This document shows positions 30,262 through 32,983 of a stretch of DNA of 64,000 nt, one piece after another. This DNA comes from a virus. A program made the translations under genes and the position numbers. The notes below the pieces were generated by a model. That model was not told the DNA's origin, searched no databases, and was given only the letters and a program-made list of their open reading frames with translations. Numbering within the stretch: the first letter of the stretch is position 1; every line of letters starts with the position of its first letter. The stretch lies in the IMG/VR virus record IMGVR_UViG_3300045988_065173, positions 13,917 to 77,916 of that record, one strand, 5' to 3'.

Positions 30262-30492
30262 ATGAAAAAGTTAACAATTATTTCATTGGGGTTGGCTCTA
30301 TTGTGTAGCTGCTCTAAATCGACTCTTGAGTCAAAGGCAACAAAGAGTGTTCCAGATGGAATCATTCCGTTTGACGCTGTGATTCACTTTCGGTACAAAA
30401 ACCATTATTACATTAAGTTTACTGAGGAATATGAAAGATCTAGAACCAGTGGAGTAGTTCATGACCCAGATTGTAAATATTGTAAGAGATGA
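30262..30492 (+). CDS. small lipoprotein
   Basis: MKKLTIISLGLALLCSCSKS, a signal peptide with an LxxC lipobox. Confidence 0.5.
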   Translation: MKKLTIISLGLALLCSCSKSTLESKATKSVPDGIIPFDAVIHFRYKNHYYIKFTEEYERSRTSGVVHDPDCKYCKR

Positions 30493-31007
30493 GTGAAGTG
30501 TATTATCTTTTGGCAGCCATTTCATATGGCATTTTTCTAGTTCAATTCATCTTATCTTGGTTTGGTGGAGACACTGACTTAGATGTTGATTTAGATGGAG
30601 AACTAGATATGAACGTGAGTGATATTGTCTCATTTAAGGGATTAGTCCATTTTATAATGGGAGCTAGTGGATGGCTTTGTGTTAAGCAGTCCGTATCTCA
30701 TTCTGTAGAATGGTATGATTATCTAATCGCATTAGTATGCGGTATTCTTTTCGTGGTTATACTTTACTACTTATATAAACTCTGTTTAAGACTCCAGCAT
30801 CAAGTTATTCCAGAAGAGGGTGAAGCCTTGATTGGAAGGGTTGGAATTATCACAGTTCCTTGTGAAAACCATTTCTTCATTACTATTGAAGTAAATGGAG
30901 GTTCTGAGGAAATTGTAGCCTATCCAGAAGTCCCAAAAATGGGATATATGGTTGGTACTCGTGTGGTAATTTCTAAATTTGAGAATGGAAAGTATTATTT
31001 TAACTAA
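30489..31007 (+). CDS. NfeD-like membrane protein (SPFH partner)
   Basis: N-terminal TM helices plus a C-terminal OB-like domain (…GTRVVISKFENGKYYF). Immediately upstream of the flotillin gene. Confidence 0.6.
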   Translation: MSEVYYLLAAISYGIFLVQFILSWFGGDTDLDVDLDGELDMNVSDIVSFKGLVHFIMGASGWLCVKQSVSHSVEWYDYLIALVCGILFVVILYYLYKLCLRLQHQVIPEEGEALIGRVGIITVPCENHFFITIEVNGGSEEIVAYPEVPKMGYMVGTRVVISKFENGKYYFN

Positions 31008-31024
31008 AAAAGAATTTTTAAAAG

Positions 31025-32983
31025 ATGACAACAGAAACTCTTATTGTAGCAGGTGTTATTGTATTGCTAGTAGTTTTAACCTTTATTGGGCTTTTGTCAC
31101 GGTATCGTAAGTGTGCTAGTGATGAGATCTTGGTTGTATTTGGTAAGGCTGGTAAGAAAAAGGTAGTTAACGAGAAGACTGGAAAGTCGGAAGAAGTTAT
31201 TCTACCGTCCAAAATCATTCATGGTGGAGGTACATTCGTAATGCCAGTAATTCAAGACTGGGCTAAAATGTCCTTGAAACCTATCCAAATTCAAGTAAAT
31301 GTTACTGGTGTTTCCAGTCAAATGATTAAGGTAACTATTCCTGTAACATTGACCACTGGTATTGGAACTACTCAAACATTAATGCAAAATGCTGCAAGTA
31401 GATTCTTAACAGCTAAAACTTCTGAAATCTCAGACCAAATCAAGGATATTCTCATTGGTGAAGTGAGAAGCTTGATGGCTACGATGACGATTGAGGAAAT
31501 TAATGCTGATAGAATCAAATTTATCGGCAAAGCTAAGGAGAATATTGAGACCGAGTTGAATAAAGTAGGTTTCAGTATTATCAACATTAACAATGCTGAT
31601 ATTTCGGATGATGCAAACTATATCAAGAATCTAGGTCAGAAAGCTGCAACTAAAGCTCTTGCTCAAGCACAAGCTGACATTGCAGAAGAGAAAAAGAAAG
31701 GAGATATTCAGATTGCAGAAACCAACAAACAACGCGAAATTGCTGTAGCAGATGCTGAGAAAGAGCGTGAGACTACTGTTGCTCAGACTAGACAAGAGCA
31801 AGAGGTTCGTGTGGCAGAGATTAACCAGGAGAAGGAAATCAAACTTGCAGAAGCTGAGAAGAATAAGCAATCAGGTATTGCCAATCAGAAAGCTGAGCAA
31901 GCTGCCAATATTGCTAAAGCTAATACTGCAGCAGAATCGGAGAAAGCTAAAGCAGAAGCTGAGAAAATTTCAGCTATAGCTAAGGCTCAAGCAGAAGCCG
32001 ATTCTAATAGAGCAGAATCTGAATCACTGGCTGAGGCTAATGTAGCTAAGGCTAAAGCAGAAGCTGACTCTAAGAAAGCAGAAGCAGAAGCAGAGAAACA
32101 AACTCGTATTGCTCAGGCTAAGCAAAAACAGGAAGCCGAGACGCAAAAGGCAATTAACGAACAGGAAGCTGCAGTTGCTAAGTATGAGTCAGACAAGCGT
32201 GTAAAGGCAGCCGAAGCTGATAAGATTGCAGGAGTGGCAGAACAAAATGCTACAATTGAAGTCTCTAAAGCTAAGGGAGAGGCCGAGAAAGCTAAGGCTG
32301 AAGCTGAAAAGGTAGCAGGAACTTCTAAGGTAGAAGCTCAAATGACTATCGAGAAAACCAAGCAAGAAAAGCAACTGGAAGTAAACGAAGCAGCTGCATT
32401 GGCTATGGAAGCTAAGCTTCATGCTGAGACGATTGTTCCCGCTCAAAAGGAGAAGGAACGTATCACAATTGAGGCAGAAGCTGTTAAGCAGAAAGCCGTA
32501 CTTGAAGCAGAAGCTAAAGCTGCTGAAATTCTGAAAGAAGCAGAAGCTAAAGCAAATGCTACAAAGTTGCAGCTAGAAGCCGAAGCTGAAGGTACAAGAA
32601 AGAAACTGCTTGCTGAAGCTGAGGGTAAGAGAGCATCATTGATGGCAGAAGCTGATAAGGTTCAAGCTATCGAAATGGCTCCTGCTCTGGCAGTCCAGAA
32701 GATGATTGAATCTGGCTTGACTCCGGAAATGGTGGTTCAGTACAAGACAGTTGATCAGTTGACAGGTATTGCAGAAGCATCTGCCCAGATGTTTGAACAC
32801 ATTCACCTTGGACAGGTTACTGTTTATGGTAATGAGAATACTGCTGGTAATTTCATGGCTAAGACTGCTGAGAACTTGAATCCTGCTCTTGACTTATTGC
32901 GTTCTATTCCTTTCGCTGACACAGTAAAGGAAATGTTCGGCAAGAAGAAAGCCGAAACAACTGAGTTTGAAGAAGTGAAGTAA
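31025..32983 (+). CDS. flotillin / YqiK-like SPFH-domain protein with a long Ala/Glu-rich coiled coil
   Basis: N-terminal TM segment, an SPFH-like region and ~300 aa of EA-rich heptad repeats. 652 aa. Confidence 0.75.
   Translation: MTTETLIVAGVIVLLVVLTFIGLLSRYRKCASDEILVVFGKAGKKKVVNEKTGKSEEVILPSKIIHGGGTFVMPVIQDWAKMSLKPIQIQVNVTGVSSQMIKVTIPVTLTTGIGTTQTLMQNAASRFLTAKTSEISDQIKDILIGEVRSLMATMTIEEINADRIKFIGKAKENIETELNKVGFSIININNADISDDANYIKNLGQKAATKALAQAQADIAEEKKKGDIQIAETNKQREIAVADAEKERETTVAQTRQEQEVRVAEINQEKEIKLAEAEKNKQSGIANQKAEQAANIAKANTAAESEKAKAEAEKISAIAKAQAEADSNRAESESLAEANVAKAKAEADSKKAEAEAEKQTRIAQAKQKQEAETQKAINEQEAAVAKYESDKRVKAAEADKIAGVAEQNATIEVSKAKGEAEKAKAEAEKVAGTSKVEAQMTIEKTKQEKQLEVNEAAALAMEAKLHAETIVPAQKEKERITIEAEAVKQKAVLEAEAKAAEILKEAEAKANATKLQLEAEAEGTRKKLLAEAEGKRASLMAEADKVQAIEMAPALAVQKMIESGLTPEMVVQYKTVDQLTGIAEASAQMFEHIHLGQVTVYGNENTAGNFMAKTAENLNPALDLLRSIPFADTVKEMFGKKKAETTEFEEVK

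Follow-up and report, generated by a model that had tools for sequence, protein, structure and literature searches.

A flotillin and an NfeD-like membrane protein encoded as an adjacent gene pair in a crAss-like gut phage

A flotillin/NfeD cassette in a viral genome

We analyzed a 64,000-nucleotide (nt) stretch of viral DNA (positions 13,917 to 77,916 of the IMG/VR record IMGVR_UViG_3300045988_065173, hereafter the window), which carries at positions 30489–32983 a genuine flotillin/NfeD cassette of the bacterial YqiJK or YuaF-FloT type. An earlier reading made from the letters alone (the sequence-only reading) had proposed a YqiJK-like operon at this site and a second module, centered on an SPFH lipoprotein, further downstream. 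The four open reading frames (ORFs) that it assigned to these modules (30489–31007, 31025–32983, 51609–52436 and 52433–52780) are all present on the plus strand. The cassette itself is composed of two genes, listed here with the lengths of their products in amino acids (aa):

30489–31007, plus strand: NfeD-like membrane partner, 172 aa, with helices at residues 2–24, 49–70 and 75–102, an acidic loop at 28–45 and an OB barrel at 118–171
31025–32983, plus strand: flotillin, 652 aa, with an N-terminal membrane helix, an SPFH domain, ~335 aa of Ala/Glu/Lys-rich helix and a C-terminal tail

The one hydrophobic stretch of the 652-aa protein (residues 1–29) precedes a match to the Pfam Band_7 domain (PF01145) at residues 47–223 (E 1.3e-19, 71.3 bits versus a cutoff of 23.6) and a region (residues 226–560) composed of 25% Ala, 18% Glu and 14% Lys. 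Among 177,635 distinct sequences in the PDB it matched only human flotillin-1 and flotillin-2 (E ~1e-17 as a single sequence and 1e-24 as a profile of 23 homologues); chains of stomatin, prohibitin and HflK/C were absent from these matches. FloT was the top NCBIfam model (E 4e-39). BLASTP against YqiK of E. coli aligned the N-terminal 400 residues (E 2e-13) and, separately, a C-terminal part (E 5e-5) that corresponds to the Pfam Flot region of YqiK. Furthermore, a homologue in phage csAssE-Sib that is 39–42% identical to the window flotillin matches Pfam Flot at 2e-9. The composition and the Band_7 and flotillin-1/2 matches agree with the architecture that had been read from the sequence (an N-terminal transmembrane segment, an SPFH core and an Ala/Glu-rich helix), and the protein is classed, by sequence, as a flotillin at the subfamily level. 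Because of its membrane helix, its SPFH domain and its location in a block of genes that is not recoded (see below), we rejected a virion or coiled-coil structural protein.

The identity of the 172-aa partner had to be approached differently. Neither Pfam NfeD (PF01957) nor the YqiJ_N and YqiJ_OB models matched the protein, and NCBIfam was likewise negative or marginal; E. coli YqiJ itself matches both YqiJ models. Pfam NfeD was detected, only weakly, in 3 of 31 close homologues (best E 0.039) and in one of 38 distant ones (E 0.0015). Alignment of the family to E. coli YqiJ with hhalign was insignificant (probabilities of 2.3% and 0.5%), and a profile search of PDB sequences with the family was negative or marginal. 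As profile methods gave so little, a comparison of folds was needed. The AlphaFold model of the protein (predicted local distance difference test score, pLDDT, of 78.5) has three helices and then a five-strand barrel at residues 118–171, which fold comparison identified as an OB barrel of the NfeD type placed behind the membrane helices. Foldseek agrees with this fold, with weaker statistics. Third-party annotations point the same way: a viral protein in BFVD that is 76% identical to the 172-aa protein is named ‘NfeD-like C-terminal domain-containing protein’ in UniProt, and one homologue bears the NfeD COG name at the Joint Genome Institute (JGI).

Structure, gene context and third-party annotation, rather than profiles, thus identify the 172-aa protein as an NfeD-like flotillin partner with the architecture of YqiJ and YuaF. 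The NfeD-type label of the sequence-only reading stands on fold, context and annotation and falls short on Pfam profiles. The same reading had named a failure of profile searches to find SPFH or NfeD domains as grounds for its rejection; SPFH was detected and NfeD, at the Pfam level, was not. Its YqiJK-like gene order, with the NfeD-like partner followed by the flotillin, is borne out by the flotillin-1/2 and YqiK matches and by the fold of the partner. We consider the protein identities very likely to be correct.

An exhaustive profile search recovered 1,040 cluster representatives of the 172-aa family (E<=1e-3), a family that is large, divergent in sequence and outside the coverage of Pfam. 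Its acidic loop (residues 28–45, GGDTDLDVDLDGELD in the window protein) has a net charge of -8 and was modeled with low confidence. The loop consensus, GGDTDLDVDLDGExD with a DxDxDG motif, is near-invariant and is kept in members that are only ~25–35% identical. That the DxDxDG loop might bind cations is a guess.

The systems that most resemble the pair are YqiJ-YqiK of E. coli and YuaF-FloT of B. subtilis, in which a flotillin follows a short NfeD-type membrane protein; the window pair differs from both in being encoded by a virus. The window flotillin shares 24% identity with YqiK and is ~100 aa longer, the surplus lying in the helical region. Unlike YqiJ, its partner escapes the YqiJ_N, YqiJ_OB and NfeD models and has a poly-Asp DxDxDG loop at the position where E. 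coli YqiJ has a His/Asp loop. The SPFH partner is also of another kind in the E. coli QmcA-YbbJ cage (PDB 8z5g), which is built on the stomatin-like QmcA, and in the S. aureus FloA-NfeD system, which has the short flotillin FloA. By contrast, the window flotillin is of the long FloT/YqiK type.

Conservation of the gene pair

The flotillin gene starts 17 nt past the stop codon of the 172-aa gene. The same arrangement was found at 80 of 80 IMG/VR loci with a relative of the 172-aa protein (36–99% identity), where the flotillin gene comes next on the same strand at a distance of 13–250 nt. At 85% identity, the flotillins of these loci form 16 clusters. A census of the neighbours in the 16 clusters identified the NfeD-like gene as the only universal one and, mobile HNH endonucleases excepted, no other recurrent neighbour. 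The partner gene is present in 272 IMG/VR contigs, and its occurrence with the flotillin across hundreds of large crAss-like gut contigs indicates that the pair is a selected and conserved trait of viruses abundant in the human gut and not a stray host gene. The pair is also found at the distant homologues P0339 and P0078 and in csAssE-Sib, a phage that otherwise has only weak terminase and reverse transcriptase similarity to the window phage and lacks the lipoprotein cassette described below.

Two further loci carry variants of the pair. A contig from a Lachnospirales metagenome-assembled genome (MAG; JBKECF010000014.1, 4460–6563) has a member of the NfeD-like family (hidden Markov model E 5e-12) upstream of a flotillin, and this member extends the family beyond phages. 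The flotillin is split there into two ORFs (5001–5234 and 5412–6563), owing to a frameshift, to decay into a pseudogene or to faulty assembly, and a response regulator adjoins the pair. In the T5-like Vibrio phage KIT04 (LC487410.1, 2189–3859), a 473-aa flotillin lies directly behind an 82-aa protein that is membrane-only, has a short acidic patch and lacks an OB barrel. The 82-aa protein, perhaps a shortened version of the partner, matches the NfeD-like family model weakly (E 1.6e-4).

The window cassette is preceded by a small gene that is not part of its conserved core:

30262–30492, plus strand: small lipoprotein-like ORF, 76 aa, with an ATGA overlap with the start of the NfeD-like gene

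This accessory ORF is present at 19 of the 80 related loci, in the closest relatives only. It is 65–95% identical where the NfeD-like gene is 98–99% identical, and this gap indicates that the ORF evolves unusually fast. The flotillin pair is bracketed by genes for tRNA-Trp (30165–30239) and tRNA-Ser (33046–33131). A scan for promoters and terminators around the operon, of a design not meant for Bacteroidota promoters, performed no better than on shuffled sequence.

A separate SPFH lipoprotein cassette

The second SPFH gene of the window belongs to a separate cassette that is common in phages:

51413–51625, plus strand: two-helix hairpin membrane protein, 70 aa, with a charged C-terminal tail and a 17-nt overlap with the lipoprotein start
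51609–52436, plus strand: prohibitin-like SPFH lipoprotein, 275 aa, with a signal peptide, lipobox Cys 20, SPFH at residues 24–209 and a short coiled coil
52433–52780, plus strand: membrane protein, 115 aa, with 2–3 hydrophobic segments and an ATGA overlap on the lipoprotein stop

The N-terminus of the 275-aa protein (MKTIIKLLCVLTLVFGLSSCG) is a signal peptide with the lipobox L-S-S-C at residues 17–20. Matches to Band_7 (E 2.3e-22, 80.3 bits versus a cutoff of 23.6) and, over residues 1–265, to the ‘lipoprotein’ family phrog_200 (E 1.2e-59) confirm the SPFH lipoprotein with an LSSC lipobox of the sequence-only reading. Its closest solved relatives are prohibitin-2 (E 4e-7) and prohibitin-1 (1.7e-5), and prohibitins were its only matches among PDB sequences. 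Given the flotillin-1/2 matches of the 652-aa protein, this assigns the two SPFH proteins of the phage to different subfamilies.

Lipoprotein relatives were found with tblastn in 540 of 50,697 phage records, at a coverage of at least 80% in 431. They include the crAss-like cr126_1 (65% identity), the Lak megaphages (47% in Lak-C1, and two matching places in Lak-A1) and P1-like, Felix-O1-like, SPO1-like and Staphylococcus K-like phages. The sequence-only reading considered two SPFH systems in one phage unusual. In curated phage records it is the flotillin type that is rare (7 records, although the partner gene is present in 272 IMG/VR contigs). The SPFH lipoproteins are common, and their numbers and the two places in Lak-A1 indicate that several SPFH genes in one phage are not unprecedented.

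The composition of the second module also needed revision. The lipoprotein and the 115-aa gene that had been paired with it are real, but the constant partner is the overlooked hairpin gene upstream. Using phmmer, we matched the hairpin (E ~1e-4) to homologues in other phages whose genes immediately precede that of the lipoprotein. Among the 58 lipoprotein loci that are not window-like, jackhmmer found a hairpin homologue in all 58, nearly all ending at the lipoprotein start, and 115-aa homologues were found in 23. The 115-aa protein is thus ruled out as the main lipoprotein partner, and its gene is an optional third member of the cassette.

The 275-aa protein is a full-length member of the phrog_200 lipoproteins, which include gp_24988 of cr126_1, a Lak phage protein, MbpS of Kayvirus and proteins of Felix-O1-like and SPO1-like phages. 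It differs from them in nothing essential. The hairpin layout is the same in cr126_1 and Lak-C1, and the order of hairpin, SPFH lipoprotein and membrane protein is shared with cr126_1. The window cassette adjoins, in place of a wall hydrolase, a DUF5662 gene and a NARP1-like pair (53291–56058, plus strand). The first gene of the NARP1-like pair (53291–54853) is predicted to encode a NAMPT-like enzyme from its Pfam NAPRTase and NAMPT_N matches. The second (55246–56058) is phosphoribosyl pyrophosphate (PRPP)-synthetase-like and 43% identical to a cr126_1 ‘ribose-phosphate pyrophosphokinase’. A NARP1-like pair lies beside the SPFH lipoprotein cassette in cr126_1 as well.

Phage identity and genetic code

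The proposed phage origin of the window is supported by a recoded portal and a recoded large terminase (TerL), whose closest classified relatives are Crassvirales (26–29% identity). Both lie in a region of the minus strand (425–15337) where long ORFs arise only if TAG is a sense codon, and the window encodes two tRNAs suited to reading it:

9436–11646, minus strand: portal, 736 aa, with 33 in-frame TAGs, confirmed with PHROGs
11805–14165, minus strand: TerL, 786 aa, with 15 in-frame TAGs, confirmed with PHROGs
19821–19893, minus strand: suppressor tRNA(CTA)
23289–23359, plus strand: suppressor tRNA(CTA)

Each gene of this late block has 2–33 in-frame TAGs (2–23 in the other genes), and the two tRNAs with anticodon CTA are among 24 tRNA genes in total. 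Near-identical contigs in IMG/VR and the European Nucleotide Archive (ENA) measure 175–192 kb. The source of the window is thus a TAG-recoded, crAss-like gut phage of roughly 185–190 kb. It is probably a Zeta crAss-like phage, because its genome size, tRNA block, amber suppression and amber-containing reverse transcriptase of a diversity-generating retroelement (DGR) fit those described for that group (PMC12386605).

A plus-strand block at ~23–64 kb reads in the standard code and contains both SPFH loci, helicases, RNase H and tRNAs. Indeed, the flotillin and NfeD-like genes have no in-frame TAG over 824 codons. Under a model in which recoding delays the late genes (bioRxiv 10.1101/2021.08.26.457843), this location suggests that the flotillin pair would be expressed early or in the middle of infection.

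Apart from the Lachnospirales contig described above, all hits in a search of genome contigs were whole-phage contigs wrongly binned into MAGs whose taxonomy was inconsistent. For example, three whole-phage contigs of 140–186 kb with the cassette are in MAGs labelled Gastranaerophilales, Bacteroides and Clostridium. These labels are almost certainly binning errors and therefore give no host information.

Possible functions of the phage SPFH proteins

The solved SPFH assemblies (flotillin-1/2, HflKC and prohibitin) are rings or domes over a membrane patch. The N-terminal helix of the phage flotillin would likewise insert into the host inner membrane, with the SPFH domain and the ~335-aa coiled coil in the cytoplasm, and the protein could oligomerize, by analogy, into a ring or dome that encloses a membrane patch. 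The NfeD-like protein would reside in this patch via its three helices and its OB domain, also cytoplasmic, could bind the flotillin as YbbJ does with QmcA, a pair that forms a cage of 26 heterodimers (PMC13086221). The cytoplasmic placement of the SPFH domain, coiled coil and OB barrel is suggested by the basic SRYRK after the flotillin helix and KLCLRLQ after helix 3 of the partner. The most likely benefit to the phage would be a host inner membrane that is kept organized and intact during infection. Concretely, the pair might protect against membrane stress or stabilize membrane proteins, like the FloA-NfeD system of S. aureus, which stabilizes unfolded membrane proteins under stress (PMC11222466). 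This specific role in membrane maintenance is tentative, and we are more inclined to doubt it than to accept it. A catalytic or virion role for the cassette is unlikely. Taken as a whole, protein identities and membrane-maintenance role together, this is the best explanation that we can offer and a reasonably probable one.

Several observations weigh against it. The 652-aa protein scores far below the FloT equivalog cutoff of NCBIfam (134.9 versus 700 bits) and is therefore related to FloT without being its ortholog, and Pfam Flot (PF15975) was not reported in it at E<=0.1. The AlphaFold2 monomer model of the flotillin is poor (pLDDT 55) and was used only for the order of its secondary structure (a helix, an α/β domain, ~370 residues of helix and short helices, all at low confidence); the flotillin cage is thus pure analogy. 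The neighbourhood of the pair in the 16 clusters does not point to any particular function. Similarly, a 2026 paper describes SPFH genes in phages as unexplained and their role as unclear (PMC13239085). Finally, the search of genome contigs gave neither a host assignment nor a close chromosomal source.

The recurrent neighbourhood of the lipoprotein cassette is the sole functional hint that we found, and it points toward lysis or envelope processes. SPFH assemblies could set the time of lysis by corralling holin-like proteins or by aiding the export of wall hydrolases, a role that would concern mainly the lipoprotein cassette. The lipoprotein itself would face the periplasm, in the orientation of HflKC and prohibitin, and probably rings a small membrane client. 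The obvious candidate is the hairpin, which resembles a class II holin in its two helices and charged tail, is present at all 58 loci and abuts the lipoprotein gene. A peptidoglycan hydrolase gene lies directly downstream of the cassette at 12 of these loci and in cr126_1, and in Kayvirus the SPFH protein MbpS is encoded between the endolysin gene lysK and tgl, beside the holin-like MbpV (PMC7150955). However, the other 46 loci have no adjacent hydrolase within 2.5 kb, and the only glucosaminidase gene of the window (43909–44406) is 7 kb from the cassette. Furthermore, the cassette is in the standard-code block and not in the recoded late block, and none of the 16 flotillin clusters links a lysis gene to the pair. 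We regard lysis control as unlikely.

The two systems could also be parts of one structure. In this scenario, the phage would build a membrane compartment in a Bacteroidota-type host, with a cytoplasmic flotillin-NfeD cage and a periplasmic lipoprotein ring around the hairpin forming a single microdomain and the DxDxDG loop serving as a divalent-cation sensor. The compartment might shield the inner membrane from membrane-rupturing abortive-infection effectors or from early firing of the holin, or might organize entry, replication or assembly. We give this combination only a slim chance of being correct. If true, the phage-specified microdomain would be the first functional viral flotillin system.

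Modulation of proteolysis, which would have a prohibitin-like ring or a flotillin cage enclose FtsH or another membrane protease of the host and shift protein turnover, is about as improbable. The biology of HflKC and FtsH is established (PMC13220708), and the closest solved relatives of the lipoprotein are prohibitins. The lipoprotein shares the orientation of mitochondrial prohibitin and bacterial HflKC, the periplasm being equivalent to the intermembrane space, but differs in having a lipid anchor rather than a helix, in being a single gene rather than a hetero-pair and in that no protease link was found. Its match to the HflC model of NCBIfam is negligible (E 0.0048, 15.8 bits versus a cutoff of 134). 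The JGI name of one homologue of the 172-aa protein is ‘membrane protein implicated in regulation of membrane protease activity’, but this is a generic COG label, and a ClpP-type protease domain is lacking in the NfeD-like protein, which is a short form. Nor is there a sign that the phage is temperate and would require control of the CII type.

Superinfection exclusion or counter-defence, by an altered inner membrane that bars competitor DNA or blunts membrane-disrupting abortive-infection effectors, has just as little probability. NARP1 is a known phage counter-defence system that reconstitutes NAD+ (bioRxiv 10.1101/2024.02.11.579819) and the lipoprotein cassette lies beside NARP1-like genes, but this adjacency is confined to the clade of the window phage and to one other locus. 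The flotillin pair is in the standard-code block, whose genes we take as early or middle, and the genes are strongly conserved over diverse gut phages; both points count in favour of this reading. On the other hand, a scan of five proteins against PADLOC-DB 2.0 gave no match except one at chance level between the coiled coil of the lipoprotein and JetC (E 0.0047, 13 bits), and there was no precedent in the literature searched.

Novelty and significance

The flotillin and the lipoprotein belong to known kinds of protein, and the flotillin cassette is notably widespread in abundant gut phages. Relatives of its two genes are already labelled in public databases: GenBank has a ‘flotillin family protein’ in csAssE-Sib and in Vibrio phage KIT04, JGI uses ‘flotillin’ and UniProt ‘NfeD-like’. 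The literature that we searched contained no discussion of a phage flotillin-NfeD cassette and nothing on flotillin in connection with crAss-like phages or csAssE-Sib, and the papers on Zeta crAss-like phages and phAss-1 do not mention flotillin or NfeD genes.

Flotillin-NfeD operons are widespread in bacteria, and their function is still debated. The phage setting would offer a minimal two-protein system in which to study it and, if the role of the pair were resolved, would reveal how a virus benefits when it scaffolds the membrane of its host. The present result is a solid annotation and a lead rather than a new mechanism.

Other features of the window

A DGR occupies positions 723–4131 of the minus strand. 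Its reverse transcriptase (723–1727) has 6 in-frame TAGs and matches phrog_1423 (6e-89). The template repeat (2138–2235) and the variable repeat (2336–2433) share 76% identity; the mismatches sampled read T on the plus strand, corresponding to A on the coding strand. The variable repeat is at the 3' end of a 606-aa gene (2311–4131), which probably encodes a tail fibre.

The 22 tRNA genes other than the two suppressors are scattered among small ORFs on the plus strand (25555–47564). A PD-(D/E)XK endonuclease is encoded near the flotillin pair at 29622–30014 and a tRNA-ligase-CPD-like protein at 34467–34874. A highly conserved 671-aa protein (44623–46638, plus strand) has no Pfam match here and matches phrog_1735 over its full length (E 2e-242); its counterpart in another flotillin locus (L005), tagged DUF8224, is encoded 10 kb downstream of the flotillin gene.

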